Assembly: GCA_031263095.1 (NCBI GenBank)
Contig: JAISGI010000015.1
Location: 12,328 to 76,327 of the forward strand
DNA length: 64,000 nt
Reading direction: 5' to 3'
Origin: Rickettsiales bacterium
GTDB taxonomy: Bacteria; Pseudomonadota; Alphaproteobacteria; Rs-D84; CACZYB01
Positions 10,223 to 60,477 of the stretch are shown one piece after another (the first letter of the stretch is position 1; each line of letters starts with the position of its first letter). The position numbers and the translations under genes are program-made. The notes below the pieces were generated by a model. It was not told where the DNA came from. It made no database searches and was given only the letters and a program-made list of their open reading frames with translations.

Positions 10223-10800
10223 ATGACAAGGAACTATAAACGTACGGGGGGGGGCAAAAGGCTAAATACCTAGCGTTTACGCTTCTCCTACTATCAGCCA
10301 ACAACTCTCAATCAGCCAATTATTATACCTGCACAGCTTGCGCCGTGCCCGGTGTCTGCCAAGCCGGAGCAAGCACAGATTTTAATAAGTACAACGCTCC
10401 GCTCACACTTGCCGAGGCTACCGCCGCCATAGGAACACCCGCAACGAACAGGTGGACGCTTGTGGACGAGCAGCCAACCGCATACCAAGTAAAATGCGGC
10501 ACTCTTCCAACCGGAATATACCGTCTTGACGCATACAACTCGGTGGAATCCTACAGCTCGCAGATAGCCGTGCTCGATAAGCCGACGGATTATACCCTTT
10601 GGCTGAACGATAGTCCTACTCCTGGATTGAATGTAAGGATTTATATGGGGACCAATTCTTGCGGCGCTTTCAATGGCTGTAACGGTGAGAACTGCAAATT
10701 TATGATACTTGCGTCCACGAATTCCAGATATACGCCCGGCATAACGCTTGACGACATGAAGCATGCCGCAAGGAATGTCGCCATATATCGGCTTCAATAG
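10223..10800 (+). CDS. phase-variable small secreted Cys-motif protein, family copy A; G9 tract at 10246-10254 leaves it out of frame (ON at 10 G)
   Basis: Leader GTCAAACCAAAGGACAAGACCG-ATG (Shine-Dalgarno plus ATG at 10223). ATG ACA AGG AAC TAT AAA CGT ACG-G9 then hits TAG at 10271 with 9 G. With 10 G it reads MTRNYKRTGGGQKAKYLAFTLLLLSANNSQSANYYTCTACAVPGVCQAGASTDFNKYNAPLTLAEATAAIGTPATNRW...AIYRLQ (the frame of ORF 10345-10800). Confidence 0.8.
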
Positions 10801-10807
10801 GAAAAGG

Positions 10808-10874
10808 GCGCAGGGAAGATTGGCGGCACGGGCTTTGGTTAGACGCAAATACCTCCCGCCAATCTTCCTTGCGC
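10808..10874 (+). ncRNA. conserved structured 3'UTR element of the family (19-bp stem, ~30-nt loop carrying an anti-leader sequence)
   Basis: Stem GCGCAGGGAAGATTGGCGG pairs with CCGCCAATCTTCCTTGCGC, the only mismatch being a G·U pair in the sense transcript. The loop contains GCTTTGGTTAGACGC, complementary to the GTCTAACCAAAG leader. The same element follows copies B and K and, on the minus strand, copy D. Confidence 0.55.
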
Positions 10875-10891
10875 CCGAAACCTCAGGAATC

Positions 10892-12499
10892 TTAAACGCT
10901 CTTCCTAATTTCCTTGACCGCGGCGATAAGCGCGGTGGTCGAGGAATCATGCGCCGCAATGTCCGCGCTTTTCAGGTCGGCAACCACGGCCGAGGCAAGC
11001 TTTTTGCCAAGCTCCACCCCGAACTGGTCGAAACTGTTTATGTCCCACATTACCCCCTCGGCGAACGTCTTGTGCTCGTACAGGGCGACAAGCATGCCGA
11101 GCGAGGCAGGAGTGATTTTCCGCACCAAAAAAGTATTGCTCGGCCGGTTGCCCTCAAACGTCTTGAACGGCGCCAATAAATCGCCCGCAAGCTCCGGCGA
11201 ATCCGCGGCTCGCCCGCGCATAAGCGCCTCGGCCTGGGCAATACCGTTCGCGACAAGCTTTATATGGTGCTCGCCAAGCTCGTTGTGTGACAGCGCAGGT
11301 ATGATAAAGTCGCACATCATGGGCTTCGTGCCCTGGTGGATAAGCTGATAGAAGCTGTGCTGCCCGTTCGTGCCCTCCTCGCCGAACAACACGGGCGAGG
11401 TCTGGTATTTGACCGGCATGCCGTCGCGACCCACGTATTTCCCGTTGCTCTCCATGACAAGCTGTTGCAGGTATGAAGGCAGATAGGCGAGATAGTGGTC
11501 GTACGGCAACACGGCAAGCGTGTCCATGCCCAAAAAATTCGCATTCCATATTTCCATAAGCGCCATGATGATCGGGATATTTTGGCGGAAATCCGTGGAG
11601 CGGAAGTGTCGATCGGCCTCCGCCGCGCCGGCAAGCATGGCCTTGAAGTTTGCCGTGCCGATAGCTATCATGATTGCAAGCCCGATTGGCCCCCACATGG
11701 AATAGCGGCCGCCCACATAGTCGCCGAAGGGGAATACCTGTGCGGTCGGAATACCGAACTCGTTGGCAAGGCGCGCGTTGGTGGAAATCGCCGCGAAATG
11801 GTGCGCGACCGCGCTTGCGCCAAGCTTCTCGATAATCCAATTCCGGCACGTCGCGGCATTGGTCATCGTCTCGTCCGTGGTGAAGGTTTTCGACGATACT
11901 ATGAACAGGGTCGACTCCGGCTCCAGCCGCCGCAAAACCTCAGCCGTGTCCGTCCCGTCGACGTTCGAGATGAAGTGGAAATTGACAAGCGGCGACTTGT
12001 ACGGAAGCAGGGCATGGATAGCCATTTTTGGCCCAAGGAACGATCCGCCGATTCCTATATTCACCACGTCGAGGATTCGCCCCTTCTTCGCACCAGTGAA
12101 ACGTCCGTCCCTTACCCGCTCCGCAAACTCGCTTGTCGCCGCGAAAGTCTCGCGTATGTCGAGGGACACATTGCGCCCGTCCACGGTAAAGTCTTCGTCC
12201 ATGTTGCGAAGCGCGGCATGCAAAACGGCGCGGTTCTCGGTGAAGTTGATTTTCTTGCCAGCGAACATCGCTTCGATTGCCGAGGCCAAACCCGCCTGCT
12301 CCGCCATTTTTACAAGGAACCCGAGGGCTTTTTTATCCACAAGATTCTTGGAAAAGTCGAACATTATGTCGCCCAAGGCAAGGCTCATTTCGCCCGCCCG
12401 CTCCGGCTCTTGGTCGAACAGGTCGGTGATTTTATAGTCGCTTAAATAGGCTTGGTGCTTTTTAAGCTGGCCATAGGCCGACGTTTCGGTGAAATTCAT
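10892..12499 (-). CDS. pgi: glucose-6-phosphate isomerase
   Basis: 535 aa with typical PGI sequence (DYSKN...GGRYSMWGPIGL...HQGTKP). Confidence 0.9.
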   Translation of the reverse strand: MNFTETSAYGQLKKHQAYLSDYKITDLFDQEPERAGEMSLALGDIMFDFSKNLVDKKALGFLVKMAEQAGLASAIEAMFAGKKINFTENRAVLHAALRNMDEDFTVDGRNVSLDIRETFAATSEFAERVRDGRFTGAKKGRILDVVNIGIGGSFLGPKMAIHALLPYKSPLVNFHFISNVDGTDTAEVLRRLEPESTLFIVSSKTFTTDETMTNAATCRNWIIEKLGASAVAHHFAAISTNARLANEFGIPTAQVFPFGDYVGGRYSMWGPIGLAIMIAIGTANFKAMLAGAAEADRHFRSTDFRQNIPIIMALMEIWNANFLGMDTLAVLPYDHYLAYLPSYLQQLVMESNGKYVGRDGMPVKYQTSPVLFGEEGTNGQHSFYQLIHQGTKPMMCDFIIPALSHNELGEHHIKLVANGIAQAEALMRGRAADSPELAGDLLAPFKTFEGNRPSNTFLVRKITPASLGMLVALYEHKTFAEGVMWDINSFDQFGVELGKKLASAVVADLKSADIAAHDSSTTALIAAVKEIRKSV

Positions 12500-12602
12500 T
12501 TGCGTCTCCTTTTTGACCGGAGAATTTTAACATAGTATTTTATTGTTGTAAAGCCCACCTGTTTCTGGTATAATGGTATAGTCAAACCAAAGGAGAAGAC
12601 CG

Positions 12603-13200
12603 ATGACAAGGAACTATAAACGTACGGGGGGGGGCAAATAAGTATATAGCTACTGCGCTTCTTCTGGTTTCAGCCAACAACTCTCAATCTGCCAATTATT
12701 ACACCTGTACCGCCTGCACCGTACCTGGAGCATGCCAACCCGGGGCGACAACGGACTGCAGCCGGTACAACGATGTATATGCGACGGGCAATCAAGGCAA
12801 CGCGGACATGGTGGCTGCATGCATAGGTTCGCCCGACAAAAGCAGGTGGCAGCTTGTCGCCAAATACTCGCTGGGCGATACTGCGGGCAATGTTTCCTCC
12901 GGCAGTCTGACGCCCGGAATCTACCGGTTCGACGGCTATTATTCGGACGACAAATACGGCTATGGCATAGTAATATTCGACCACGAGGTCAAGTATGCGT
13001 TCAAAGATTTCATCTCCAACAGCGAATCCTGCTGCAACCGCATAGTAGTCAATGTGAACAACGAAGATGCGCTGACGCATAACGCACCTGGTACGCAAAC
13101 GGCGGACGTAGGAAATTATCAGGTCAAGGCCGTGCCGAACATAACCCTTTCGGATATGATTCGTACTGGCAAAACAGGCGCAATATACAAACTGAACTAG
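12603..13200 (+). CDS. phase-variable family copy B; G9 at 12626-12634 (ON at 8 G)
   Basis: Same leader (GTCAAACCAAAGGAGAAGACCG-ATG). At 9 G translation stops (..GGC AAA TAA). At 8 G it reads MTRNYKRTGGANKYIATALLLVSANNSQSANYYTCTACTVPGACQPGATTDCSRYNDVYATGNQGNADMVAACIGSPDKSRWQLVAK...GAIYKLN, joining ORF 12808-13200. The promoter has an extended -10 (TGGTATAAT) at about 12569. Confidence 0.8.
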
Positions 13201-13208
13201 AGGGCAGG

Positions 13209-13276
13209 GTGCAGGGAAGATTGGCGGCACGGGCTTTGGTTAGACGCTAAGCGCCTCCCGCCAATCTTTCTTGCGC
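13209..13276 (+). ncRNA. family 3'UTR hairpin element (copy B)
   Basis: Stem GTGCAGGGAAGATTGGCGG pairs with CCGCCAATCTTTCTTGCGC. All three mismatches are G·U or U·G in the sense RNA. The loop is CACGGGCTTTGGTTAGACGCTAAGCGCCTC. Confidence 0.55.
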
Positions 13277-13419
13277 CCAACTCTAAATAGATAAATATTT
13301 CAACCTTTTTTATTGTTTTTATGCCTGTGGTATGCAAAGGCAACTCGCCAGAGTTGTCCTGCATTCCACAGGCGTTTAGGCATGCTTTTTTCCTTGCTTT
13401 TGGCGCTCCCTTTTGCTAG

Positions 13420-15879
<2,460 letters not shown>

Positions 15880-17494: not shown

Positions 17495-18526
17495 CTACTG
17501 CCTTTTAGCACCAAACACACCATATACAGATAACGGCTGATTCGTCGCCGTGTTGTCAAGCCAGAAATTTCCCGCGGTTTCCGATATTATTCCACCCTCA
17601 CCGAAGAAAGAGTGGTTATAGCACTGCCCGCTGCTTGGGTTCCCGCACGTGGCGTTCTCTGCTTGGGACATGTAGTACTTGCTGTTGTTGCCCAGGATGC
17701 GTATTGTGCCGTCGGTCTTATAGGTTATGTTGTACCCCCACGTGTCCTTGAAATTCAGTTGGAGCTGCTCGTTTCCGTTCTGCTCGATGGTGAATATGGA
17801 TTGCCCGGTAAAGTCAGCCCAATCGTCCGTCCCGTCCTTGCCCACGACCGCATAGGCCTTGCCGAAGAAGTTTATTTTTCCAAGGTGCTGGTCTCTGGTC
17901 GCACTCGTGTCGAAAATCTGGCTCTCCGGCCGCGGCACGGTTATGAAGAGGTCATACTCCGGATGCGGCCCGGCGATAAGCTTGCCGTTCAGGAACACCT
18001 GCGACACGCTCTTCCAGTATCCGAAATCCGCATACTGCATGCCGAGCGACCCGCCGCCAAGCACGATCGAAGCGTCGATTCTCTGATTCATGGCGGTTAT
18101 CTTGCTTCTGTCGTATTGGATGCCTAATTGGTTCAGTTGGGAGATAAGCAACTCTGTGCTGCGCGCCTCGTATTTGTCTCCACTGGACGACGTGTATCCG
18201 AACAGCGGTAGGTTCATGGTCTTGTCCGCCTGATACGAGCCCGAGTTGTTCATATAGAAGTCGTTCACGGAGAATGCAACCTCGTCTTTAAGGTCGCTCG
18301 ACTGGTGCCATATATAGTTGATTTTGCCGTCTTCGTTGAAAAAATACTTTACCTGCCCGCCAGACGAGGGATTGACCGCATTATAGTTTATGCCGGTTAT
18401 GTCGTATGTTACAGGCTCGGCGGCAAGGGTGACAATTTTCTCGGCCGGAATATGCACCTCCTTGGGCGAAGACGTCCCGCACGCGCCAAGACAAAGCATG
18501 ATTGCTATAAGGGAAGTGTGTTTCAT
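17495..18526 (-). CDS. surface lipoprotein, TbpB/fHbp-like C-terminus (putative Slam-type SLP)
   Basis: A GAGGAG Shine-Dalgarno site precedes the ATG at 18526. It has a lipoprotein signal (MKHTSLIAIMLCLGAC-G) and a beta-rich body, and ends in ...YGVFGAKRQ. Confidence 0.55.
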   Translation of the reverse strand: MKHTSLIAIMLCLGACGTSSPKEVHIPAEKIVTLAAEPVTYDITGINYNAVNPSSGGQVKYFFNEDGKINYIWHQSSDLKDEVAFSVNDFYMNNSGSYQADKTMNLPLFGYTSSSGDKYEARSTELLISQLNQLGIQYDRSKITAMNQRIDASIVLGGGSLGMQYADFGYWKSVSQVFLNGKLIAGPHPEYDLFITVPRPESQIFDTSATRDQHLGKINFFGKAYAVVGKDGTDDWADFTGQSIFTIEQNGNEQLQLNFKDTWGYNITYKTDGTIRILGNNSKYYMSQAENATCGNPSSGQCYNHSFFGEGGIISETAGNFWLDNTATNQPLSVYGVFGAKRQ

Positions 18527-18602
18527 AATGCTCCTCTCTTTGCCAATATGATACCACAAAATCCCCTTTTCGTCAACAATATATGATTTCTATATAAAAG
18601 CG

Positions 18603-18777: not shown

Positions 18778-19890
18778 ATGCATAAACTCATGAAGTCGAT
18801 ATCGGTTCTGGCGATTCTTGCGCTTGCCGCGTGCGGAGGATCTGATAGCAATAGCCCGAGCGTTGACAATCCTGGCACGGGCTCGGGTACTGGTACCGGT
18901 ACAGGCTCAAAGAATCCGTCGTACAAGACAGATACCCCCACGAACGAGGATATGGTAACCCTTGCCTACGACCTCCCGCTTGGGCTGGTCCAGATTGAGG
19001 GCGATACCGAAATGTACGACATCCTCAAGTACGAGGCCAACACATACAACGAAAATATCGGCCTCTGGTACAGTACCATTCTGAACCTGGACGCTGCAGA
19101 TCCGGATGACGAGATAGAAGTCGAACGGTTCATCCCGGCCAAGCAGTTTATAAAGGACGGCAACGGCAACTGGACGGCCAAGACAACGTTCAATTTCACC
19201 TCCGGAGATTCTTACGCCAAGTTTGTCGATGGGTACATGACCACTTCGGAGGCTTCCGACGCTAATAATTTCGACCTTATCAAGCTTGACGTTGCACCGG
19301 TGCTGATGGGCGCGACTACGGACAAGACGGGCATGGCTTTCGTCGAGTACGGCTATTGGAAAAAGACCGCTTACCAAGGCGCTGTCGCCCAGTTCACTAC
19401 GTTCGAGCCGTTCGTCGGCGGCTTCGAGACGCACATGATTGACGACGCGTTGCTTCCCACGACCGGCGCTGCTATGACATTCTCGGGCCACGCTGGCGGC
19501 GGCATAAACGGCGTCGCTCCCGGCGCGACAAACACCGCCTTGAGCGGCGCGCAGCAGGAGCTTGTCGGCACCTCGTACCTTGTCCTTACTCCCGGCACTA
19601 CCTCGTCCGAAACGCTTAAATTGGCGTTCAACAACTTCTATACGTTCAACTTCACGAACGGCGGCTTCACGAGCATAGAGGGCGCGGCCACCGGAGACTA
19701 TGCCACCGCCTATGCTGGCAAACTTGCAACGTCCGGTGTCGATACGTCCAACAGCGGCTATACCCGCGACTTCTACGGCCGCAACTATACGCCCGAGGAG
19801 GTAGCCGGCATTGCCAACTTGACCATAACCGGAACGGATAGCAACATATACTATCTCAACGCCGCTTTCGGCGCCAAGAAAGCGAAATAG
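18778..19890 (+). CDS. surface lipoprotein paralog, TbpB/fHbp-like C-terminus
   Basis: GGAGGAGG Shine-Dalgarno site, a lipobox (LAILALAAC-G), a G/S/T-rich linker and the motifs FVEYGYWK and ...AAFGAKKAK at the C-terminus. It is transcribed divergently from 17495..18526. Confidence 0.55.
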   Translation: MHKLMKSISVLAILALAACGGSDSNSPSVDNPGTGSGTGTGTGSKNPSYKTDTPTNEDMVTLAYDLPLGLVQIEGDTEMYDILKYEANTYNENIGLWYSTILNLDAADPDDEIEVERFIPAKQFIKDGNGNWTAKTTFNFTSGDSYAKFVDGYMTTSEASDANNFDLIKLDVAPVLMGATTDKTGMAFVEYGYWKKTAYQGAVAQFTTFEPFVGGFETHMIDDALLPTTGAAMTFSGHAGGGINGVAPGATNTALSGAQQELVGTSYLVLTPGTTSSETLKLAFNNFYTFNFTNGGFTSIEGAATGDYATAYAGKLATSGVDTSNSGYTRDFYGRNYTPEEVAGIANLTITGTDSNIYYLNAAFGAKKAK

Positions 19891-20032: not shown

Positions 20033-20773
20033 ATGAAGCTCAATATCGCAAGTATCGCAGTTTTGGCCGCGCTTGGCCTTGCCGTGCCTGTGTCGGCGGA
20101 CGTGAATTCCAATCCTTGGGAGGATAGGGACAGGGAGGCGAAAATGCCCGGCCACTCGCCTGATTCCGTCGTGTACGAAATCTCCGACATCTGGGCCGGC
20201 CGCGACCGCGAGGAAAATATGAAGGGCGGCGGCCACATGGCCGAGAAGAAAGAGAGTGCTCCCAAGGCGCGCGCCTCAAGCCCTAAAAAGGAAAAGGAGA
20301 CGAAATACGTTTCCTACGAAAAGGAGCCGGAACCCAAATCCCGCCGCTACTCCGACAAGCCGGTCGAGCGCAAGATGTACGCGCCCGCGGCCTATGACGA
20401 CGATCTGACGCCGGATGAGCTTGCCTCCATCGAGCGGTGGCAGAATGGCATAAAGAACGTGTTCTGGGAGGACTATCGCGGAAACAACGTCCGCGTCGAG
20501 GTTCTCCGCACCAACCAGGATGTCAAGGAAATGCGCCTGAAGTTCGTCCAAAGCCAGGATATGAACTCCGATCCTGACGGCTCGGTTACCGCAATGCTCG
20601 ACAATGTGGCGGACGCGGTGATAAAGCGCACCTGCGGCAAGGCCAGCCGGCAGGCGATAATCCTCTACGAGCGCCCCTCGGTCGAGGTCACCAAACAGAC
20701 GACCTACGACGACTATCGCATAGTCGCCCGCGGCGCAAGCTTGCGCGAATACGGCTTCCGCTGTATATACTAG
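20033..20773 (+). CDS. secreted hypothetical protein with a charged K/E/P-rich linker
   Basis: Shine-Dalgarno site GAGGAGAGAG, a signal peptide (MKLNIASIAVLAALGLAVPVSA) and a terminator at 20793-20822. Confidence 0.5.
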   Translation: MKLNIASIAVLAALGLAVPVSADVNSNPWEDRDREAKMPGHSPDSVVYEISDIWAGRDREENMKGGGHMAEKKESAPKARASSPKKEKETKYVSYEKEPEPKSRRYSDKPVERKMYAPAAYDDDLTPDELASIERWQNGIKNVFWEDYRGNNVRVEVLRTNQDVKEMRLKFVQSQDMNSDPDGSVTAMLDNVADAVIKRTCGKASRQAIILYERPSVEVTKQTTYDDYRIVARGASLREYGFRCIY

Positions 20774-21006: not shown

Positions 21007-21547
21007 ATGACATATATGAACAAAAAGCGTACGGGGGGGGGCAAATAAGTATTTAGTTATTGCGCTTCTCCTGATTTCGACTAACTCTCAATCTTCAAAT
21101 TACTATACCTGTACTGCCTGCGCCATACCCGGAGCATGTCAGGCCGGGGCAAACGCAGACTTTGACAAGTACAACACTCCACTTACGCTTGCCGAAGCTA
21201 CCGCCGCAATCGGCACGCCCTCAAAATCGAGATGGAGCCTTATAGATGGTGGCCATTTCGTCAACAAGCGCGGTACTCTCTCGCCCGGAGCTTACATGAT
21301 AAGCGGCAATGCCAGCATGTCCGCCGGAGGCTGCACGTCCCAGGTGGCGGTGTTCGACAGGGAAGTTGGCTATAACCTGCTTGCCGACGGCATAACGATA
21401 GACACGAACAACCCCGTGTTCAGCGGCACTACCTGGGGAGTGTATAGTCCAGCGGACTGCTCGGCAGACACGCTTCAGACTCCTGGCTGGAGCAAGGAGG
21501 ACATAACCGCCCAGTCTTTCGGCAGCTATATATACAAACTCCAATAA
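21007..21547 (+). CDS. phase-variable family copy C; G9 at 21033-21041 (ON at 8 G)
   Basis: Leader GTCTAACCAAAGGAGAAAGACGGCA-ATG. At 9 G it stops (AAA TAA). At 8 G it reads MTYMNKKRTGGANKYLVIALLLISTNSQSSNYYTCTACAIPGACQAGANADFDKYNTPLTLAEATAAIGTPSKSRWSLIDGG...GSYIYKLQ. Confidence 0.8.
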
Positions 21548-21612: not shown

Positions 21613-21642
21613 GGTCTCCTGAACCAAATATCTTATACCCGG

Positions 21643-21752
21643 GCGCAAGAAAGATTGGCGGAGGGCAAAGATTCCGTCTCCGGAATCCAAAAGCGTCTAA
21701 CCAAAGGGCAGAGAGAATCTGCCTATGCCGAACCCGCCAATCTCACTTGCGC
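21643..21752 (-). ncRNA. family 3'UTR hairpin element belonging to copy D, with an extended loop
   Basis: On the minus strand the stem GCGCAAGTGAGATTGGCGG pairs with CCGCCAATCTTTCTTGCGC. The loop carries CCCTTTGGTTAGACGC (anti-leader) plus a small internal hairpin (GGATTCCggagacGGAATC). Confidence 0.5.
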
Positions 21753-21772
21753 CAGGAAAGGAGCCGGCCAAG

Positions 21773-22358
21773 CTAGTTCAGCCGATAAATCGCGCTGCCA
21801 AGCCTTGTTCCGTAATGGTATATGTCGTCCTCGGCAAGTCCAGGTGTTCTTACGCCCTTGTCTAGGTATCCCGTGACGCGCGTGCTCTCCGTGGTATAGG
21901 TCGCATGGTCGAAGTCTATCATGGTGCACGATTGGTCGGAATATTGGTTGTACAGTTGATACGATATGTCCCTGTCCGCGACCACCACGCGCGAGTCGTA
22001 CATATTGCCACCGGTATAGTTGTCGAAGCGGTATATTCCCGGCGGCAGGGTTCCTCTAGGTTGAGAGTATTGTCCCTCGGCAAGCGCTTCGCCCGATACG
22101 ACCATAGTCCACCTGGCCTTGTCGGGCGTGCCGATGCATGCTGTCGCCTCCTCAAGCGAAAGAACTTTGCGCGGCGGACATTCGGCCGGAGGATTGGCGT
22201 ATTCGCTTACCGCGCCAGCAGAGCAAAATTTCGCGATTGTGCACGCGCTACAGGTGTAGTAATTAGCAGAGTTTGATTTGTTAGTAGATAATAAGAGAAG
22301 CGCAGTAGCTAAGAATAACTTATTTGCCCCCCCCCGTACGCATATCGTTCCTTGTCAT
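21773..22358 (-). CDS. phase-variable family copy D; C9 on the plus strand at 22327-22335 (ON at 8)
   Basis: The reverse strand reads GGTCAAACCAAAGGAGAAGACCG-ATG ACA AGG AAC GAT ATG CGT ACG-G9. At 8 G it gives MTRNDMRTGGANKLFLATALLLLSTNKSNSANYYTCSACTIAKFCSAGA...CIGTPDKARWTMVVSGE...AIYRLN. The promoter has an extended -10 (TGATATAAT). Confidence 0.8.
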
Positions 22359-23299: not shown

Positions 23300-23895
23300 A
23301 TGACAAGGAACTATAAACGTACGGGGGGGGGCAAAAGGCTAAATACCTAGCATTCGCGCTTCTCTTACTATCTGCCAATAACTCTCAATCAGCAAACTAC
23401 TACACCTGCTCGGCATGTGCTGTGCCTGAACTATGCAAAGCAGGCGCAGGCACGGACTTTGACAAGTACAACGCCCCACTCACACTTGCCGAGGCTACCG
23501 CCGCCATAGGAACGCCCGCAAAATCCCGTTGGACGCTTGTCGATTCATTCGAGGAATATGGAAGCAAGCCTGGCACTCTGTCGCCGGGACTATATAGAGT
23601 CGACGCCTCGGGCATCACAAGCGTCGGCTGCCTAAGAATATCGCAAACCGTGGCCATGTCCAAGGATACCGGATACATTATGAGGAGCAGCTCGCTCCCC
23701 GCCGAGGGGAATTGCGCAGGCTGCGCCGGAGTTGTATTCGACAGCAACAATGCAACATACTCGAGCGTTTCATACACGGTAGTGGCTCAAAATAGTACGG
23801 CCTACTCGCAAAGCTACACTCCTGGTATAACCCAAGATGACTTCGCGCCAGCCGATTGCTCCACTCACAAAACGGCGATTTATAGATTAAATTAA
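23300..23895 (+). CDS. phase-variable family copy E; G9 at 23323-23331 (ON at 10 G)
   Basis: Leader GTCAAACCAAAGGAGAAGACCG-ATG. At 9 G it stops at TAG. At 10 G it reads MTRNYKRTGGGQKAKYLAFALLLLSANNSQSANYYTCSACAVPELCKAGAGTDFDKYNAPLTLAEATAAIGTPAKSRWTLVD...TAIYRLN. The promoter has TGTAGTATAAT. Confidence 0.8.
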
Positions 23896-23917: not shown

Positions 23918-23967
23918 CCTGTGGTAAGCGGGAGATAACTTGAAAAGTTATCCTCGCTTTCCACAGG
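23918..23967. repeat. REP-like palindrome
   Basis: CCTGTGGtaagcgggagataacttgaaaagttatcctcgctttCCACAGG. Confidence 0.6.
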
Positions 23968-23970: not shown

Positions 23971-24675
23971 CTAACGCAACTGTAACTTCTCCGCCATGAA
24001 ATCCATAAGGCTATAACTCTTGCCGTCAAGCGACACCTGCTTAGCCTCCGCATAGCGGCTGATTGCGACGAAGTACAATATTTCGGCTTTCTTGAACCGG
24101 TACGCCTGCACGGTTTTAAGGTCGGCCCGACCCTTTGCACGCGCGAGGAAATCCTCGATTGCGCCGCATGGCGCCACAAGGAAAGCCCTTTTCTCCGCTA
24201 CTTCAACCATGGCCTCATCGACGCGCGCCACACCCGCCGCACCCGCGTCAAGCGGTAGTTTTACGCCAATAAGCGCAAGCGGCCGCATTGTCTTGGCAAG
24301 CGCGAAAGCCATCTCGTCCGGACTCGCCGCCTTGCGCCGTGCGCCCTCGACCGCTATGCACAAAAAGTCGCGACCCGCCGGCACGGGGATAAAGTCAAGC
24401 CGGTCAAGGACTTTCTCGTCGAACGTCGCGCCAAAGAATATATCCACGTTCGTATTCCCTTTCGGGTCGTATATCATCGCGGACTGCAACGCGCTGTTGT
24501 ATGAATCCGCAGGCACCGAACGAACGCTTGCGTCCGTCCCGTCGAAGATTTTCTCCATAGCCGACTTGGCCACAGCCGCCAAATACGGCGGGGCGACATA
24601 ACGCAAAGTCTCGCCCGCGAACACAGGCAAACCGGCAAGCAGCAGAAATATAAATAACTTTCTCAAACCCCTCAA
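23971..24675 (-). CDS. periplasmic hypothetical protein (possibly a substrate-binding-like fold)
   Basis: Signal peptide MRGLRKLFIFLLLAGLPVFAGE. No firm motif. Confidence 0.35.
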   Translation of the reverse strand: MRGLRKLFIFLLLAGLPVFAGETLRYVAPPYLAAVAKSAMEKIFDGTDASVRSVPADSYNSALQSAMIYDPKGNTNVDIFFGATFDEKVLDRLDFIPVPAGRDFLCIAVEGARRKAASPDEMAFALAKTMRPLALIGVKLPLDAGAAGVARVDEAMVEVAEKRAFLVAPCGAIEDFLARAKGRADLKTVQAYRFKKAEILYFVAISRYAEAKQVSLDGKSYSLMDFMAEKLQLR

Positions 24676-25886: not shown

Positions 25887-26446
25887 ATGAATATGAACGA
25901 AAAGCGTACGGGGGGGGGCGGAAGGCTAAGTATATAGCGACAGCGCTTCTCCTGATAGCCACTAACAACTCTCAATCTGCTAATTATTACACCTGCACCG
26001 CTTGCCCGGTACCGGGAACTTGCCCCGCCGGAAGCGTCAGGGATTGTCCCCTGAACCGCCACACATCTGCCGAAGAAGGCCTTGCCTGCGTCGGCGCGAA
26101 TCCGACATGGACGCTTGTCGATTCCATAAGCGGGTGCGGGCAGTCCGCTCAAAGCAAAAGTGTGCCCCTCCAACCGGGAGTATATAGGATAGAGGCTTGG
26201 CGTGCCGAGGGCTGGGGTTCTACCTTGGTTGCAATCGACCACACCCAAGACGCATTCCTGCAGTCCGACGGTGGAGGGCAGAAGTGGACTCTTGCTAACT
26301 TGGGCGACGCGAACGTATATCATGGAGGCGACGGCGGAGTAGGTTTCAATAGGTGGTTCTGGCATGACGGCCAATTCGCACCCGGCGCGCCTGCATCAAA
26401 CCAAATCCAAACCCCTTGCTCCGCAAGCGTGTATAAGCTGCAATAA
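25887..26446 (+). CDS. phase-variable family copy F; G9 at 25910-25918 (ON at 10 G)
   Basis: Leader GTCTAAACAAAAGGAGAAGACAACG-ATG AAT ATG AAC GAA AAG CGT ACG-G9-CGGAAGGCTAAG. At 10 G it reads MNMNEKRTGGGRKAKYIATALLLIATNNSQSANYYTCTACPVPGTCPAGSVRDCPLNRHTSAEEGLACVGANPTWTLVDS...SVYKLQ. Confidence 0.8.
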
Positions 26447-26477: not shown

Positions 26478-26527
26478 CCTGTGGTAAGCGGGAGATAACT
26501 TGAAAAGTTATCCTCGCTTTCCACAGG
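26478..26527. repeat. REP-like palindrome
   Basis: CCTGTGGtaagcgggagataacttgaaaagttatcctcgctttCCACAGG, identical in core to 23918 and 41501. Confidence 0.6.
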
Positions 26528-26544
26528 CTACTGAAACAAGCTGC

Positions 26545-26997
26545 TTACTTGTAAATCTTTTCCCGATTCTCGTGCTCTTCCTGCGCCTCGACGGAAAGCT
26601 TGGCCACCGGCCGCGCCTCAAGCCTCGCAAGGCCGATAGGCTCGCCAGTAATCTCGCAGTAGCCGAAAGTCCCGTCCTGTATGCGCAGCAGGGCGGCGTC
26701 GATTTGAGCGATAAGCTTGCGCTCCCGGTCGCGCGCGCGAAGCTCGAGCTGCTTTATGGCCTCGTCGTTCGCGCGGTCTACGTCATCCCCGGCCGAGCCG
26801 TACGTGTCCGCCGTCTCCTCGACTATTTCCTTGAGCGTGTCCTCCGACTCTTTCATCAGGTCGGCTTTCCAAGCGAGGAGCTTGCGCCGGAAATACTCCA
26901 GCTGCATGGGGTTCATATACTCCTCTTTTTTAGAGGGTTTGTATCCTTTCGGCAGGTCTATTTCAGGAAGTGCTTTCCCGTGCGCTCCGGTCATCAT
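26545..26997 (-). CDS. dksA: RNA polymerase-binding transcription factor DksA
   Basis: Coiled-coil with acidic tip residues and a C4 zinc finger (CEITGEPIGLARLEARPVAKLSVEAQE). Confidence 0.85.
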   Translation of the reverse strand: MMTGAHGKALPEIDLPKGYKPSKKEEYMNPMQLEYFRRKLLAWKADLMKESEDTLKEIVEETADTYGSAGDDVDRANDEAIKQLELRARDRERKLIAQIDAALLRIQDGTFGYCEITGEPIGLARLEARPVAKLSVEAQEEHENREKIYK

Positions 26998-27012
26998 CGT
27001 TTTCTCCTATGC

Positions 27013-27357
27013 TTATATGTGCTTCTTTATGAACTCGATGAGCGAGGTTTTGCCCATGGCGCCGCTGTGCCGGGCCAGGATCTCGCCATTCTTGAATAGT
27101 ATGGCGGTCGGAATTCCGGTTATGCCGAAACGGGCGGGAAGATCCGGCTCCTCGTCGACATTGACCTTGAAGAAGTCGCAGGAATCGCCCATTTCGCCCG
27201 ATACTTCCTCGACGATAGGCAGGAATTGGCGGCAAGGCCCGCACCACTGGGCCCAAAAATCCACGAACACCGGCTTCTCGCCTTGAATGGTTTTGTCGAA
27301 GTTTTCTTGGGTCAAGCTAGTGAATGCCATATTTTTTCTCCTTGTCAAATCCAGCAC
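27013..27357 (-). CDS. trxA: thioredoxin
   Basis: WCGPC active site; 114 aa. Confidence 0.85.
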   Translation of the reverse strand: MLDLTRRKNMAFTSLTQENFDKTIQGEKPVFVDFWAQWCGPCRQFLPIVEEVSGEMGDSCDFFKVNVDEEPDLPARFGITGIPTAILFKNGEILARHSGAMGKTSLIEFIKKHI

Positions 27358-41439: not shown

Positions 41440-41500
41440 TTAATGTCTTTATCCTTTGGTTAGACAATTATACTATATCATCATTTATTATTGTTGTCAA

Positions 41501-41550
41501 CCTGTGGTAAGCGGGAGATAACTTGAAAAGTTATCCTCGCTTTCCACAGG
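41501..41550. repeat. REP-like palindrome
   Basis: CCTGTGGtaagcgggagataacttgaaaagttatcctcgctttCCACAGG. Confidence 0.6.
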
Positions 41551-45814: not shown

Positions 45815-46416
45815 ATGACATATATGAACAAAGTACGTACGGGGGGGGGCAAAAGGCTAAATACATAGCATTCGCACTTCTCTTACTATCTGCCAATAAC
45901 TCTCAATCATCCAATTATTATACCTGTACCGCATGCACAATTCCTGGCGCATGCCAGGCTGGAGCGACGCAAGAGTGCACATACAACGTAATGCTTACTA
46001 AGGCAAGCGCGATAGGTTGTTTCGGCTCGCCCTCCAAGGAAAGTTGGACGCTTGTGGACAAGGTAACAAGCGGCAACAGGTCCGGCACCTTGCAAAAGGG
46101 AATATATAGGTTCGAGGCTATAATCCCCGGTCATCCCGGCCATGCAAGCACAGCCGCAGTGGTCTTCGACCACCCGGTCGGCTATATAATGTACAGGCAA
46201 GCCTCAACCGGAACGCCGGGTTGGCCTAACATCACATGCGACGCATGCCCTGGAATCCTTGTGGATTTGAACAGTCAGACATACTCCGGTGCGTCGCTGT
46301 TCTTCGTGGCAAACGGCGCTGGTATCGGGACAGGCTCGAATGTTCCAAATATAACAACCGAAGCCGACATGGATTCCGCTTCAGGAGTGCACGCGGCTAT
46401 ATACAAGCTGAACTAG
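45815..46416 (+). CDS. phase-variable family copy K; G9 at 45841-45849 (ON at 10 G)
   Basis: Leader GTCAACCAAAGGAGAAGACAATA-ATG ACA TAT ATG AAC AAA GTA CGT ACG-G9. At 10 G it reads MTYMNKVRTGGGQKAKYIAFALLLLSANNSQSSNYYTCTACTIPGACQAGATQECTYNVMLTKASAIGCFGSPSKESWTLVD...AAIYKLN. The promoter has TGGTATATT. Confidence 0.8.
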
Positions 46417-46424
46417 AGGGCAGG

Positions 46425-46492
46425 GCGCAGGGAAGATTGGCGGCACGGACTTTGGTTAGACGCTAAGCACCTCCCGCCAATCTTCTCTGCGC
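46425..46492 (+). ncRNA. family 3'UTR hairpin element (copy K)
   Basis: Stem GCGCAGGGAAGATTGGCGG pairs with CCGCCAATCTTCTCTGCGC, the single mismatch being G·U. The loop is CACGGACTTTGGTTAGACGCTAAGCACCTC. Confidence 0.55.
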
Positions 46493-46516
46493 CCGAGCCA
46501 AAAAATAAATATCCCT

Positions 46517-51315: not shown

Positions 51316-51883
51316 ATGAATAAGAACATACTGCGTACGGGGGGGGGCAAATAAGTATATAGCTACTGCGCTTCTCCTAATATCGGCTCAAACTCAATCT
51401 TCAAATTATTACACCTGCACAGCTTGCCCGCCTTTGCGCGACGCACCTGCCGGCTCGACCAGCTGCAAGCCGACCGGCGCGACTTGCCCAAAAAACCGCT
51501 TCCTGACCCTGGCCGAAGTTGAAAGTTGCCTCGGCGACATAGCGCTTGCCGAATGGGGCGAGGCGATCTTCACCGCGAGTATGAATAATCCGTCGCAAAC
51601 TCCGACAACTGTACAGCCGGGAATCTATAGGGCCGATACGTTCTACAATAATACATCGCTGGATGCCTCCGCGATATTCGTCGCGGACAAGCCCTTGGGT
51701 CTAAGCTTCCAGCATTCCTCGGACAATTTCTCCGTCCGCATAGATGCGGATAACGCGACGTATGCAAACCCTACCTCAAGCCTTGGCAACTGTAGCGTTT
51801 GCTCGCAAAACAGAACCGTAGAAACGCCGAACGTCGTGAACTATCCATCCGGCGCCAACAAAGGCTATCTGTACAGGCTCTAG
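51316..51883 (+). CDS. phase-variable family copy L; G9 at 51339-51347 (ON at 8 G)
   Basis: Leader GTCTAACCAAAGGAGAAAGACG-ATG AAT AAG AAC ATA CTG CGT ACG-G9. At 8 G it reads MNKNILRTGGANKYIATALLLISAQTQSSNYYTCTACPPLRDAPAGSTSCKPTGATCPKNRFLTLAEVESCLG...GYLYRL. It is preceded by ACTAGAATTATTACAAT (51233-51249) and a promoter with TATTATAT. Its stop overlaps the 3' end of the lipoprotein gene on the opposite strand. Confidence 0.8.
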
Positions 51884-54026: not shown

Positions 54027-54561
54027 TCAGTTCAGACGATATATGGCGCCATACATTCCCGCGGCCTGGTCGGACAGATTGGGAGTGTGCATATTGAAGT
54101 CATACATGAGATAAGTCTTGCCGTCGGTGGCGTCGTTCGTTATCCTGGCAGTAGGGTTGACTCCTGCCGTAGGGTCGGAATCTCCCACAAAATATTCGGA
54201 CGCGCGGTCGACTATCACTATGCCAGACGACCTTGTGTTGTTCGCAACCGCGTCTAGCCTATAGATTCCCGCCTGTACTTGGCCGGTTTTCTGTTCGGCT
54301 CCATTAGCTCTGTCTATAAGAGTCCACGCAGACTCGGCTGGGGAACCGACGCACCGCGCGACCTCGCCCGGATAGCCCCAATTGGTAAGCAGCCTGTTAT
54401 AGGTACAGTCGGATACGGCCCCGGCTTGGCACGCCCCCGGTACAGCACAAGCTGTACAAGTATAATAATTTGATGATTGAGAGTTGTTGGTAGATAATAG
54501 GAGAAGCGCTAAAGCTAAATACTTATTTGCCCCCCCCCGTACGTTTATAGTTCCTTGTCAT
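54027..54561 (-). CDS. phase-variable family copy M; C9 at 54530-54538 (ON at 8)
   Basis: The reverse strand reads GTCTAACCAAAGGAGAAGACAG-ATG ACA AGG AAC TAT AAA CGT ACG-G9. At 8 it gives MTRNYKRTGGANKYLALALLLLSTNNSQSSNYYTCTACAVPGACQAGAVSDCTYNRLLTNWGYPGEVARCVGSPAESAWTLID...GAIYRLN. The promoter is TTGACA, 17-nt spacer, TATTAT. Confidence 0.8.
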
Positions 54562-54619: not shown

Positions 54620-54669
54620 CCTGTGGAAAGCCAGAATAACTCGGGAGAGTTATTCTGGCTTTCCACAGG
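54620..54669. repeat. REP-like palindrome
   Basis: CCTGTGGaaagccagaataactcgggagagttattctggctttCCACAGG. Confidence 0.6.
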
Positions 54670-55991: not shown

Positions 55992-56586
55992 TTAGTCAAG
56001 CTTGTATATTGCGACAGTAGGGTCTATCGTGTATATCATGTCCGAGACAGTTATACCGGGGACATATGATACAGTGCTTGGCTTTTGGGTACTACTATTC
56101 GCATTGATCGTGTGGTACCTGCCACCACAGTTGTTGAAGCGTTGCACTGTTGTCCAGTCTTCGGACGAGTTATCTATGCATACATGTGCTCCGCTGTCTA
56201 CGAATTTACCGCTCCAGGTGCCATAGTCGGTGTCTTGGGCAAGCACTACAATCCGTGATGTCCAGCTTGCCTCGGTATGCCACAAATCTACGCGATAGAT
56301 TCCGGGCGAAAGCATGCCAAGCTTTTGCGGCCCCCGAGGACCCTCTTCTTTTTTAACAAGCGTCCATCTGGATTTAGCGGGCGTACCTATACAGCGGACA
56401 GCTTCTTCCAAAGACAAAGTTTTGTCATAAGTGCAATCCTTGGTCGCACCAACTTGACACGCACCCGGCACTGCACAGGTCGAGCATGTGTAATAATTTG
56501 CTGAATAGGATTGGTTAGCTGATATTAGGAGAAGCGCAACAGCTATATACTTATTTGCCCCCCCCCATACGTATATTATTCCTCAT
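55992..56586 (-). CDS. phase-variable family copy N; C9 at 56558-56566 (ON at 8)
   Basis: The reverse strand reads GTCAAACAAAAGGAGAAGACCGATA-ATG AGG AAT AAT ATA CGT ATG-G9. At 8 it gives MRNNIRMGGANKYIAVALLLISANQSYSANYYTCSTCAVPGACQVGATKDCTYDKTLSLEEAVRCIGTPAKSRWTLV...VAIYKLD. The promoter is TTGACG, 17-nt spacer, TATAGT. Confidence 0.8.
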
Positions 56587-56648: not shown

Positions 56649-57410
56649 TTAAATCTTAAATTTCATGCCAAGGTAAAAGGCATTCGCCTCGACATCGACT
56701 ATGGCCGTGGTCGCGATGGTGTTTATGCCTGTGTCGATAAGCATGCCGCCGCTCAGCTCGCCATAGCTTATGTGGCGCCAGCCGAACTCGACCGCAATAC
56801 GCTCGCTCACGTCCGCATTCGCGCCAAGCATGACTTGCCACCCGAACCCAGCTTCTCTGATGCTTGCGCCCGAAAGGATGGTCGGCCCGCCGCGGCCCCA
56901 AAGGTCGAACTCGGCCGACAGCAGGGTAATGCCAAACCCTATTCCGACATAAGGGGTTATGACGCTGGTATTGCCAAAGTCGTAATAGCCGTTCAACATA
57001 AGGGCCGATGCTTTGAAATTGTCCGTCTCTCTAATCGCCTCGACTTTGACGCCCCCGGCGATAATAAGCTCGCCCTCGGTTCGTAATTCTCCGCTTTTGC
57101 TTCCATAGGCAAGAGTAAGGCCGCCGGGCTTTGCCGTCGCGTCAAGCGCGAACGCCCCGCCAAGGCTTACATCCACATCCATGTTGCGGTAGGCCAAAAG
57201 CCGCGCGGCTATGTACCCGCCGTCTTTGCCCATAGAGGTCATAGGGACGGGTGCCGGCTCGACAACAACCGCCTCGGGTGGCGGCATTGCGATAGAGGCA
57301 GGTTTCGGCGTTCCGAATTTGGCCTGGAATTCCGCCTCGCGCTCCTCAAGACTCTGCGCCCGCACGCCAAAGGCAGACAATGTAGCTATTATGAATGCAA
57401 ATTTTCTCAT
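56649..57410 (-). CDS. outer-membrane beta-barrel porin-family protein (Omp25/RopB-like)
   Basis: Signal peptide (MRKFAFIIATLSAFGVRAQS), alternating beta-strand pattern and a C-terminal ...FYLGMKFKI. Confidence 0.6.
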   Translation of the reverse strand: MRKFAFIIATLSAFGVRAQSLEEREAEFQAKFGTPKPASIAMPPPEAVVVEPAPVPMTSMGKDGGYIAARLLAYRNMDVDVSLGGAFALDATAKPGGLTLAYGSKSGELRTEGELIIAGGVKVEAIRETDNFKASALMLNGYYDFGNTSVITPYVGIGFGITLLSAEFDLWGRGGPTILSGASIREAGFGWQVMLGANADVSERIAVEFGWRHISYGELSGGMLIDTGINTIATTAIVDVEANAFYLGMKFKI

Positions 57411-57535: not shown

Positions 57536-58119
57536 ATGATTATTATGAACAAAAAGCGCACGGGGGGGGGCGGCGGCGGAATGCTAAGTATAGAGCAACT
57601 GCGCGTCTCTTACTATCAGCTAACAACTCTCAATCATCAAATTATTATACCTGTACAAACTGCGCTGTACCCGGCGCTTGCCAAGCTGGCGCCACGGCGG
57701 ACTGTACTTATGGCCAATTCCTATCCCTTGAGGGAGCGGCGCGTTGTTTAGGAACTCCAGCGAAAACCAGATGGACGGAAGTCTATAGGTGTACAAACAA
57801 CTGCTCTTCTTCTGCAGGAGGTTTTCCAAAAGGAGTCTACAGGTTCGATCTCAAGAACTCGAAAACCGTATATTCACGCGTCTTTATATCGTTATATGAT
57901 ACGAAGCTATACAGCTTCCAGCGCGCCTGCAACGGGGTTGAAGACCGAGCGTGCGTGGGAATGCTGTGCGGCCCATCACAGACGTTCGACGAATGCAACC
58001 GATGGGCAGGAATGAACGAAAATTCAACAGCGCCGCAGATATTCACTCCGGGCATAACGGCCGATGACATAACGAACCCAAGTGCCGGGTCAATTGTGGT
58101 GTATAGGCTCGAGGGATAG
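57536..58119 (+). CDS. phase-variable family copy O; G9 at 57562-57570 followed by (CGG)3 (ON at 10 G)
   Basis: Leader GTCTAATTGAAAGGAGAAGACGAAA-ATG ATT ATT ATG AAC AAA AAG CGC ACG-G9-CGGCGGCGG. At 9 G it yields a 71-aa out-of-frame product (ORF 57536-57751). At 10 G it reads MIIMNKKRTGGGRRRNAKYRATARLLLSANNSQSSNYYTCTNCAVPGACQAGATADCTYGQFLSLEGAARCLGTPAKTRWTEV...IVVYRLEG. Confidence 0.8.
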
Positions 58120-58132: not shown

Positions 58133-58163
58133 CCTGTGGAAATCTGCCCGGGATTTCCACAGG
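58133..58163. repeat. short REP-like palindrome
   Basis: CCTGTGGaaatctgcccgggatttCCACAGG. Confidence 0.55.
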
Positions 58164-59149: not shown

Positions 59150-59844
59150 GAAAGTCCGGGGTAATCCTTGTCATTTCGAGCTTTTTGTGCCTTGCCGCAG
59201 CGGTGCTTTGCATCTATGCGGCGCTTGGATTTTCGGACAGCCTCGAACGCGACCGCCTGCGTGTGCTTGTAGTTGTGAAAGAGGACGGCCGCGGACTCGA
59301 CTTTTCCGCGACCCCGCTCAAAATGCCGGCCCTTTCGGCTGCGCGGCGCGAGGAGCTTCTTAAAAAGCTTATAGTGGAGTATATAGTCGCGCGCTATACG
59401 TGGACGGGAAGCGCAACCGAGTCGCGGCGCATATTCGGCGGATGGGGCAAGGATATGGCCTCGGGCTCGCTGTTCAAGCTTGCCTCGCTCGCCACGTTCG
59501 ATCCGGAAAGGCCGGACGCGCCGCCGTACCTTGCGCCCTATTACGACTTTATGAAAGAGAAAGAGGAAATCCGCAGGCTTTCCGAATCTGGCACCACGCG
59601 CACGGTCGAAATTACCGTGCCTCCACGGCGGTACAAGGACGATATGTGGATAGCCGAGGTCGAGTTCGTCTATAAGGGCCCGGCCGTATGGAATCTCGCC
59701 CAGGCCAACCGAGAGAAGTACGAGCTCCAGATGACAATCGAGCCCATTACCGATCTTCGTACACCTACGGCCGCAATGCTCCTGAATCTGCCGTCCGCTG
59801 TGTTCGAATGGCGCATTGTCTGGTTCAAGCGCGTGGTGAAGTAG
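59137..59844 (+). CDS. second VirB8-like bitopic membrane protein, low confidence
   Basis: TM helix (VILVISSFLCLAAAVLCIYAAL) then ...LIVEYIVARYTW...; paralogous in architecture to the preceding gene. Confidence 0.35.
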   Translation: MARMRKSGVILVISSFLCLAAAVLCIYAALGFSDSLERDRLRVLVVVKEDGRGLDFSATPLKMPALSAARREELLKKLIVEYIVARYTWTGSATESRRIFGGWGKDMASGSLFKLASLATFDPERPDAPPYLAPYYDFMKEKEEIRRLSESGTTRTVEITVPPRRYKDDMWIAEVEFVYKGPAVWNLAQANREKYELQMTIEPITDLRTPTAAMLLNLPSAVFEWRIVWFKRVVK

Positions 59845-59860
59845 GACATTGGGGATATAA

Positions 59861-59895
59861 AAAAAGGCCGGTAAAACCTTGGCCTTTTTTCGGTT
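59861..59895. terminator. bidirectional terminator
   Basis: aaaaaaGGCCggtaaaaccttGGCCttttttcgg. Confidence 0.6.
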
Positions 59896-59909
59896 TTATT
59901 TTAGATTGC

Positions 59910-60477
59910 TCAGTTTAGTTTATACAGGGCAGCGACTGTATCCTCGCTATATGCCGCGATTGCGGTTTGCAGGGTTATGCCCGGCGTCCATATTCCTTGA
60001 TTGGCCGAGGAAACAACACGGTCATTACCTGGACCGGGCGCTCCGCCAGTATATCCTGCGTTCGGAAGCGCGATGGCTCCGCTTCCAGCCCAATACTGTA
60101 CATTTGAAGTCTTGTCCAAGACTATGACGCCGGAAGAAAACCGAGGATTTCCACCATTTTTCAGGAATCCGTCAAGCCTATAGACGCCCGGGCCGACGGA
60201 TGTTCCCCCGCCGTCGCCAGAGGTGTATTTCTGGACTAGGTTCCAGCGGCCGGCGGCCGGAGTACCTATGCATGCCGTCGCCTCCTCGAGGCTTGACATC
60301 TTGTTCATTGTGCATACAGGTTTGACTGCTGTACCAGCAGGGCAAGTTTCGGAAATATCGCACGCACTACAAGTGTAATAATTTGAAGATTGAGAGTTGT
60401 TAGCAGATAATAGGAGAAGCGCAATAGCTAAATACTTATTTGCCCCCCCCCGTACGTACTGTGTTCATAACAGTCAT
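59910..60477 (-). CDS. phase-variable family copy P; C9 at 60443-60451 (ON at 8)
   Basis: The reverse strand reads GTCTAACCAAAGGAGAAGACATA-ATG ACT GTT ATG AAC ACA GTA CGT ACG-G9. At 8 it gives MTVMNTVRTGGANKYLAIALLLLSANNSQSSNYYTCSACDISETCPAGTAVKPVCTMNKMSSLEEATACIGTPAAGRWNLV...AALYKLN. The promoter is TTGACT, 17-nt spacer, TATATAAT. Confidence 0.8.

Follow-up and report, generated by a model that had tools for sequence, protein, structure and literature searches.

Probable phase variation of a multicopy family of small, predicted exported proteins through uniform G9 tracts in an uncultured alphaproteobacterium

Why would a bacterium keep fifteen related genes that are all out of frame at the same point? 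The question is raised by a 64,000-nt stretch of DNA (the window) from a metagenome-assembled genome (MAG) labelled "Rickettsiales bacterium" (assembly GCA_031263095.1, contig JAISGI010000015.1, positions 12,328-76,327, forward strand), in which sixteen paralogs encoding small, predicted exported proteins lie among housekeeping genes and fifteen carry an identical run of nine G residues early in their coding sequence. The original prediction had placed these sixteen paralogs, fifteen with G9, where we find them, and had read them as contingency loci in the style of Opa and PilC. Its coordinates hold to within one base throughout, the one shift being that the minus-strand copy given as 40879-41439 starts at 41440; it left implicit that the genes are out of frame at G9 and did not list a further G9 run, at 40042-40050, outside the family. 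We find that the contingency-locus reading fits the frame logic of the tracts, the coding constraint around them, a paralog that appears to carry G10 and G9 runs in promoter spacers of related genomes. We therefore regard DNA-level slipped-strand phase variation of a repertoire of small exported beta-sandwich proteins, by way of poly-G in the signal-peptide coding region, as the probable explanation.

The reading frames were defined by an in-silico series from G7 to G11 on each tract. At G9, all 15 tract-bearing copies are out of frame, and the frame opened by the ATG is read for 7-24 codons, with a single exception of 71 codons (copy 57536). Six copies (class A, with CAAAAGGCTAAATAC 3' of the tract) have a full-length open reading frame (ORF) at G10 or G7, and nine (class B, with CAAATAAGTAT 3' of the tract) at G8 or G11; the classes differ by a 4-nt indel 3' of the tract. 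In each of the 15, a change of one unit toggles the gene in silico between a full-length and a truncated ORF. The third possible class, in frame at nine, is empty (0/15), an outcome with a probability of (2/3)^15, or about 0.002, if frames were random. The sixteen copies are as follows.

10223-10800, plus strand: family copy, class A; G9 at 10246-10254
12603-13200, plus strand: family copy, class B; G9 at 12626-12634
21007-21547, plus strand: family copy, class B; G9 at 21033-21041; promoter-like TTGACA-17-TATTAT
21773-22358, minus strand: family copy, class B; C9 on the plus strand at 22327-22335
23300-23895, plus strand: family copy, class A; G9 at 23323-23331; promoter-like TTGACT-17-TATAAT
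25887-26446, plus strand: family copy, class A; G9 at 25910-25918
30001-30551, plus strand: family copy, class A, mosaic; G9 at 30024-30032
32202-32808, plus strand: family copy, class B; G9 at 32228-32236
38460-39020, minus strand: family copy without a tract; ordinary signal peptide MKKLLAMVMLMAMPAGAA; intact 186-aa ORF, annotated as LBL52_01755 (100% identical)
40879-41440, minus strand: family copy, class B; C9 on the plus strand at 41406-41414
45815-46416, plus strand: family copy, class A; G9 at 45841-45849
51316-51883, plus strand: family copy, class B; G9 at 51339-51347; truncated ORF annotated as LBL52_01820
54027-54561, minus strand: family copy, class B; C9 on the plus strand at 54530-54538
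55992-56586, minus strand: family copy, class B; C9 on the plus strand at 56558-56566; length 9 reproduced in Logan contig L005
57536-58119, plus strand: family copy, class A; G9 at 57562-57570; length 9 reproduced in Logan contig L005
59910-60477, minus strand: family copy, class B; C9 on the plus strand at 60443-60451

The runs themselves are far more frequent than in shuffled sequence. A pattern of eight or more G returned 32 overlapping matches, corresponding to 16 runs in the window, where shuffled sequences give 2.5 matches; for G9 runs, the chance expectation is about 0.5. Each of the 16 G/C runs has a length of exactly nine, and any other run of G or C in the window is shorter than seven. 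Fifteen of them lie at the 5' ends of family genes, in the shared context AACCAAAGGAGAAGAC-N-ATG-(20/23/26 nt)-CGTAC-G9-C (the first C of CGTAC is not present in all), so that the homopolymer begins 20-26 nt past the ATG, within the 5' coding region, as at a contingency locus, where a homopolymer of about 7-8 or more would be expected. CGTAC-G9-C is the most conserved stretch of the family's 5' region. We considered CGTACG as a restriction or methylation target and rejected it, with 21 sites found against about 18 expected and nine of them outside the family.

The spacing of the tract indicates that both of its flanks are translated. Between ATG and tract lie 20, 23 or 26 nt in the 15 copies; between tract and the NYY codons, class A has 63 or 69 nt and class B 56, 59 or 62 nt. 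Within a class, then, every indel on either side adds or removes whole codons, as expected under coding constraint. The original prediction had located the G9 in a signal-peptide coding region, and a one-G change does restore a full ORF with an n-region, an h-region and a cleavage site, all identified by inspection. The frame-corrected N-termini read as Sec signal peptides with 2-4 basic residues, a hydrophobic core of 10-12 residues (for example, YLAFALLLLSA) and, in the gated copies, putative cleavage between ...NNSQS and (A/S)NYYTC. Two tract-less paralogs would be cleaved at the matching position, between ...AGA and ANYY.

The family is old, and its coding capacity has been maintained. The 16 frame-corrected proteins form a single alignable family, 23-40% identical to its first member, with invariant N-Y-Y-x-C-x-x-C, G, W, G-x-Y, P and Y-x-L residues and three to five conserved Cys residues per protein. 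Synonymous differences between the mature regions are saturated (median proportion of synonymous differences, pS, 0.72-0.79), yet the gated ORFs contain no in-frame stop over 147-171 codons in 15/15 copies, whereas the other two frames contain 1-12; it follows that the copies are long-standing and maintained genes, not pseudogenes. The conserved ends and divergent centre of the proteins fall where they had been predicted. In the N-terminal domain the proportion of nonsynonymous differences (pN) is 0.33 against a pS of 0.79 (pN/pS 0.42), a sign of purifying selection, and in the central segment, where the alignment is weak, pN is 0.65 against 0.79, near neutral or diversifying. Synonymous divergence extends to the signal-peptide segment (pS 0.57), so recent duplication does not account for the invariant G9 within it.

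Each gated copy also appears equipped for its own expression. As predicted for the family, and borne out for the 15 tract-bearing copies, every one has a promoter-like -35/-10 site with a 17-nt spacer (16 nt in one) that agrees with the consensus at 8-11 of 12 positions and stops 28-31 nt short of the ATG, followed by a Shine-Dalgarno site; an extended -10, with TG two bases before the hexamer, is present in nine copies. Nearest-paralog relationships change from segment to segment, which indicates that the copies recombine: the promoter and N-terminal domain of copy 30001, for instance, are closest to copy 32202 of class B, while its signal-peptide segment is closest to copy 45815 of class A. 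Body segments are about 60% identical between paralogs at the nucleotide level.

Is there any sign of a tract in an ON state? On another contig of the same MAG, the annotated 220-aa protein LBL52_04475 (P0088) starts MTRNKIRTGGGQKAKYLAFTLLLLSANQSYSANYYTC, reported also as MTRNKIRTGGGQKAKYLAF. A class A leader would need ACG followed by GGG GGG GGG to encode this N-terminus, and LBL52_04475 is thus best read as the predicted ON product of a G10 tract. The implied G10 means that the assembly is not capped at nine. Support for variation at the DNA level also comes from the nearest relatives with retrieved DNA (L006 and L007, contigs of related MAGs from other samples), in which two of three G9 runs lie beside genes for an Opa-like outer-membrane protein (OMP) and a small secreted protein. 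The former run, in L007, lies within TTGATA-(9 nt+G9)-TAAAAT, an 18-nt spacer, 56 nt upstream of the Opa-like/OMP_b-brl gene; the latter, also in L007, lies within TTGACA-(6 nt+G9)-TAGAAT, a 15-nt spacer, before the gene for the 81-aa small secreted protein. Tracts in such promoter spacers can act only through DNA length, not through RNA slippage. The third run is in frame within a haloacid dehalogenase (HAD) hydrolase gene, where it encodes KGGGK. The non-family run of the window, 28 nt upstream of the GTG of an acetyltransferase gene, resembles the promoter-spacer runs of the relatives in the TAAATC that follows it, and TTATCA-8 nt-G9-TAAATC on the plus strand would give a 17-nt spacer; in silico, a length of C8 or C11 would fuse an 18-codon N-terminal extension to the acetyltransferase ORF. 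TA(A/G)A directly follows each of the non-family tracts, this one included.

40042-40050: sixteenth G9 run of the window, non-family, intergenic between clpP (40153-40857, minus strand) and the hexapeptide O-acetyltransferase gene (39349-40014, minus strand)
21568-21576 of L007: G9 run of a relative
9837-9845 of L007: G9 run of a relative
2546-2554 of L006: G9 run of a relative

Our model for phase variation treats the copies as separate units, each with a sigma-70-type promoter of its own, a leader of about 30 nt, a Shine-Dalgarno site and an ATG. Translation would begin at the ATG and enter the tract after 7-9 codons. At G9, the ribosome would meet a stop within a few codons (71 codons in copy 57536) and no exported protein would be made. 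When replication adds one G (six copies) or drops one G (nine copies), the ATG would be joined to the signal peptide and mature domain. Most cells would thus express the tract-less copies only, and a shifting minority would express one or a few extra variants, each presenting a different surface through variable central loops on a conserved scaffold, while recombination between copies would reshuffle promoter, signal-peptide and body modules. Tract length presumably changes within the population, and the products would reach the cell surface or the medium and bind something, as an adhesin, receptor or antigen does. G9 would be the length at which mutation leaves the tracts at rest, an idea put forward for Campylobacter jejuni: its polyG/C tracts are most often nine long, and the explanation given is that short tracts tend towards insertion and long ones towards deletion (PMC3401435).

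Several observations weigh against this model. No locus was observed at two tract lengths in the assembled sequences; the G10 of LBL52_04475 is deduced from a protein record; and the signal peptides were judged by eye. Above all, the length is uniformly nine in 15/15 family tracts, in the one other tract of the window and in 3/3 tracts of relatives, so that runs of eight or more in the window and 45 kb of relatives are exactly nine in 19/19 cases, whereas known polyG phasomes mix G8-G13. This uniformity is sharper than in any phasome known to us. Nine is the length found in paralogs of great age, in each of the frame classes, outside the family, and in the promoters and coding sequence of related genomes, a sharp optimum for which the model supplies no mechanism. 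Conceivably, though we think it unlikely, strict nine is an active or selected length set-point of this alphaproteobacterial clade and not a passive mutational mode. Such a set-point could reflect a replication or repair property that returns tracts to nine, a built-in OFF reset, or it could reflect obligatory RNA-level slippage on G9 that expresses the whole repertoire at a fixed low level.

RNA-level events also underlie the alternative that we take most seriously, albeit as an unlikely one: programmed recoding at a fixed, selected, slippery G9, where stuttering of RNA polymerase or slippage of tRNA-Gly on the ribosome would yield a constant small fraction of +1 and -1 products. The entire repertoire would then be expressed at a low level in every cell, with no switch in the DNA. 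A run of conserved length that demands a one-base frame change in all 15 copies, in either direction, is what a slippage gene would look like; the invariance of the length across old paralogs, despite divergence of the signal-peptide segment, resembles selection on length, the conservation of CGTAC-G9-C points the same way, and both frame classes are one step from nine, as expected if +1 and -1 slips were both used. We retain this explanation because the length is uniform and same-locus variation was not observed. It is disfavoured by the implied G10 paralog in the same genome and by the promoter-spacer runs of the relatives, which are beyond the reach of RNA slippage; no conserved downstream stimulatory structure turned up either, although no search was aimed at one. 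To our knowledge, documented transcriptional slippage in bacteria uses A or T runs, and G and C runs are classic DNA-level switches. Less probable still is that the gated copies are a silent archive that donates sequence to the few copies intact in the consensus (38460-39020, LBL52_00195 and LBL52_04475), in the manner of Anaplasma msp2/p44 or Neisseria pilS. The clear mosaicism of the paralogs, whose nearest neighbour differs per segment, would suit such an archive. Silent cassettes of the msp2/p44, pilS and vls kind, however, are donors without a promoter, start codon or 5' coding sequence that serve a single expression site, whereas no gated copy lacks these parts: all retain promoter, leader, Shine-Dalgarno site, ATG and a signal-peptide coding region under constraint, and the low nucleotide identity of the bodies leaves little homology for conversion.

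Could the frameshifts instead reflect decay, or an error in run length? A decaying pseudogene family, frameshifted at a mutation-prone run, would explain why 15/15 copies are frameshifted in the consensus and why annotation pipelines called truncated ORFs or nothing. We strongly disfavour it and consider it very improbable, given the absence of in-frame stops despite synonymous saturation, the purifying selection on the N-terminal domain, the frame kept on both sides of the tract and the intact promoters; saturation of pS also excludes very recent duplication as the reason that the frames are open. Just as improbable, in our estimate, is an artefact of sequencing or assembly in which the true homopolymer lengths are in frame. 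A single run length common to three different assemblies might invite this explanation, but the two frame classes would require errors in opposite directions, and A8 and T8 runs within housekeeping genes leave their frames intact (for example, sufS is full-length with A8 at 28406-28413). In addition, an independent Logan assembly of the same run (SRR14710921) contains a contig, L005, that is 100% identical over 2985 bp and has G9 at two tracts (copies 55992 and 57536); it alone among the Logan contigs covers family tracts for comparison of length. The repeated G9 and the intact housekeeping frames, together with the G10 implied in the same MAG, make an artefact unlikely. L005 ends 11 nt beyond the G9 of copy 57536 (window 57581), where we found no repeat of 31 nt or more.

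How does phase variation of this family compare with known switches? Translation of Neisseria PilC, an exported protein, is turned on or off by one-G changes in a run within the signal-peptide coding region, and transcription is independent of that tract. The window family likewise has homopolymeric G inside the signal-peptide coding region, but PilC is a pilus-tip adhesin of about 110 kDa encoded at one or two loci, whereas the mature products here are 15-18 kDa, bear no sequence or fold relation to it, and come from what we tally as 16 or more gated loci within 50 kb, in a family with 34 or more members in the genome. Like Neisseria Opa, the family is scattered and multicopy, with a promoter at each locus, a repeat in the leader-peptide coding region that would allow independent switching, hypervariable segments on a conserved scaffold and, judging from the segment comparison, inter-locus recombination. 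Opa differs in having 11-12 loci, a CTCTT pentamer and an eight-stranded outer-membrane barrel; the window family has a mononucleotide run, a predicted soluble beta-sandwich, and two frame classes that share one resting length at which each is OFF. Paralogous surface protein genes of Helicobacter pylori (oipA, sabA and hopZ) carry CT repeats in the signal-peptide region; the placement of the repeat is the same, but there it is a dinucleotide repeat in a few loci for beta-barrel OMPs. Promoter-spacer switches (Neisseria porA and opc, Bordetella fim) are the counterpart of the L007 runs between -35-like and -10-like hexamers, and possibly of window 40042-40050; the 15 family tracts differ from these in being in coding sequence. 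C. jejuni shares the modal length of nine, many loci per genome and a mutational pattern proposed as the driver (PMC3401435), but its loci, with G8-G13, are mostly unrelated surface-glycan modification genes, in contrast to the uniform nine and one dominant paralogous family of the window. The novelty lies in the protein family and in the lineage, the probable switch being of a familiar kind; the scale is unusual, as is the uniform OFF resting state.

The family extends well beyond the window. Word-indexed protein searches yielded three and later six proteins, and it was only an exhaustive hidden Markov model search, with 76 matches, that brought out the wider family. Beyond the window, the MAG has at least 18 further members, distributed over the remainder of the source contig and seven other contigs, making at least 34 paralogs; most copies are absent from protein databases or present there only as truncated ORFs. 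On Logan contig L001 (1-30, 3265-3741), a tract-less copy has a leader fragment to one side and a partial copy to the other, an arrangement that reveals two further family members. Distant homologs are found in other "Rickettsiales bacterium" MAGs (LBO78, LBH41, LBB08 and LBI17) and on metagenome contigs. They have the same C-terminal domain as the window family, of about 150 aa, that ends in ...TPG(I/V)...(I/V)YKL(N/D), preceded by an ordinary signal peptide and then either Cys-rich Ephrin_rec_like repeats or long coiled coils.

The prediction that the protein family is undescribed is upheld by our searches, with no match to Pfam, NCBIfam-style libraries, PHROGs or PADLOC, nothing at E<=1 in a sequence profile search of the PDB, and no fold match for the modelled protein. 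A qualification concerns the Cys motif. Two homologs from related MAGs match Ephrin_rec_like (PF07699) above the cut-off of 23.1 bits (P0014, 28.7 bits; P0055, 27.2 bits), whereas the window copies and P0088 have no match to it in Pfam; from sequence comparison, NYYTCxxCxxPGxC looks like a degenerate single repeat of this type, at most a remnant, and so appears related to the repeats of the homologs. An AlphaFold2 model of the mature intact copy (predicted local distance difference test score, pLDDT, 78; predicted template-modelling score, pTM, 0.79; low confidence in the variable segment) is a beta-sandwich of about 10 strands with one short helix. Its weak top structure matches are parts of phage tail fibres or spikes, a Bdellovibrio fibre tip and domains like those of tumour necrosis factor (TNF). 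These matches, and the C-terminal place of the domain on the coiled-coil proteins of relatives, are compatible with and suggest a binding "head". Two familiar classes were considered and set aside: the Opa/Opacity family (PF02462), to which there is no Pfam match and whose eight-stranded barrel the modelled beta-sandwich is not, and chaperone-usher pilins, for which the fold search gave no match and the neighbouring genes include neither usher nor chaperone. Separately, four giant proteins (P0019, P0021, P0042 and P0046) with many PKD-like repeats give repeated matches to profile positions ~5-89, and their GVYxFxLxVTD resembles the family's PGIYRxD; this hints that part of the beta-sandwich may be distantly related to PKD/immunoglobulin (Ig)-like domains.

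Does the DNA around the copies hold further layers of regulation? Three copies are followed, starting 6-9 nt 3' of the stop, by a hairpin with a 19-21-bp stem (perfect from 14-17 nt) and a free energy of -43 to -61 kcal/mol (z-score -6.6 to -8.7). Conserved in its loop is CTTTGGTTAGACGC, which is exactly complementary to GTCTAACCAAAG, the family leader sequence that adjoins the Shine-Dalgarno site; leader-loop duplexes are predicted at -19 to -27 kcal/mol, whereas shuffled leaders give -12.6 +/- 2.9. The element could be a terminator, or an antisense element acting from the 3' untranslated region (3'-UTR) on leaders. The pairing hints at possible cross-talk between paralogs, and a possible further layer is that the 3'-UTR loop of an expressed copy lets it repress others. 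A scan against Rfam returned no match for the hairpin, finding only tRNA-Ser. The hairpins are located as follows.

10806-10878, plus strand: 3' hairpin element, stem of about 21 bp, about 6 nt past the stop of copy 10223
13209-13282: further hairpin copy
46424-46497: further hairpin copy
21640-21762: expanded orphan hairpin between two convergent family copies

A palindrome resembling repetitive extragenic palindromic (REP) elements, CCTGTGGAA-N-TTCCACAGG, has 36 arm matches in place of the 10 expected. It occupies intergenic regions on either side of many family copies and abuts the -35 hexamer in several. It is present on contigs L001 and L002 of the same organism and absent from the relatives' loci L003, L004, L006 and L007; L001 and L002 come from the Logan assembly of SRR14710921 and break off within the repeated leader or palindrome. 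Examples in the window are these.

6076-6126: REP-like palindrome
10130-10177: REP-like palindrome
13324-13372: REP-like palindrome
23918-23967: REP-like palindrome
26478-26527: REP-like palindrome
29902-29955: REP-like palindrome
30563-30608: REP-like palindrome
32829-32879: REP-like palindrome
40808-40846: REP-like palindrome
41501-41550: REP-like palindrome
54620-54669: REP-like palindrome
58133-58163: REP-like palindrome

The copies are set in a housekeeping backbone comprising dnaG, parE, pgi, gyrB, lptG, sufS, xerD, serS, rho, clpP, surA, lptD, lptF, nrdG, nrdD and miaB. The GyrB of the window shares 73-79% identity with proteins from about 20 other MAGs of uncultured alphaproteobacteria and about 65% with Magnetospirillum, and the anaerobic ribonucleotide reductase (nrdG/nrdD) suggests that the host is an anaerobe. 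In the closest relative (L006 3122-7874), parE and gyrB are adjacent with only a 78-aa ORF between them, whereas in the window (7685-15879) a Nudix gene, two family copies and pgi separate the two; since this interval differs, family copies appear to lie in lineage-specific insertions or rearrangements. The family is absent from the parE-gyrB position in both L006 and L007. Among the backbone genes, several sizeable ORFs have no NCBIfam or PADLOC match (2060-5014, 17495-18559, 18778-19890, 20033-20773, 23971-24675 and 26500-27099), one of them encoding 984 aa. The gene at 56649-57410 (minus strand), between two divergently oriented family copies, encodes a 253-aa OMP_b-brl protein with a weak NCBIfam match to the Rickettsia adhesin Adr and has no G tract of its own. 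A literature search by accession found no paper on the source MAG, and protein- and DNA-pattern scans of genome and metagenome contig collections gave no match and no second sample of the organism.

Altogether, this analysis defines a new domain of about 150 aa, predicted to be exported, without a Pfam, PDB or fold match, and it illustrates how annotation pipelines overlook such gated families. If our reading is true, at least 16 gated loci in 50 kb, by our tally, and at least 34 paralogs would place this among the largest poly-G phase-variation repertoires known for a single family; its host belongs to an uncultured alphaproteobacterial lineage without genetics or a described surface biology. 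A common OFF length, with two classes that turn on in opposite directions, offers a natural test case for tract-length modes, and the same case bears on the distinction between DNA-level and RNA-level slippage at G runs.

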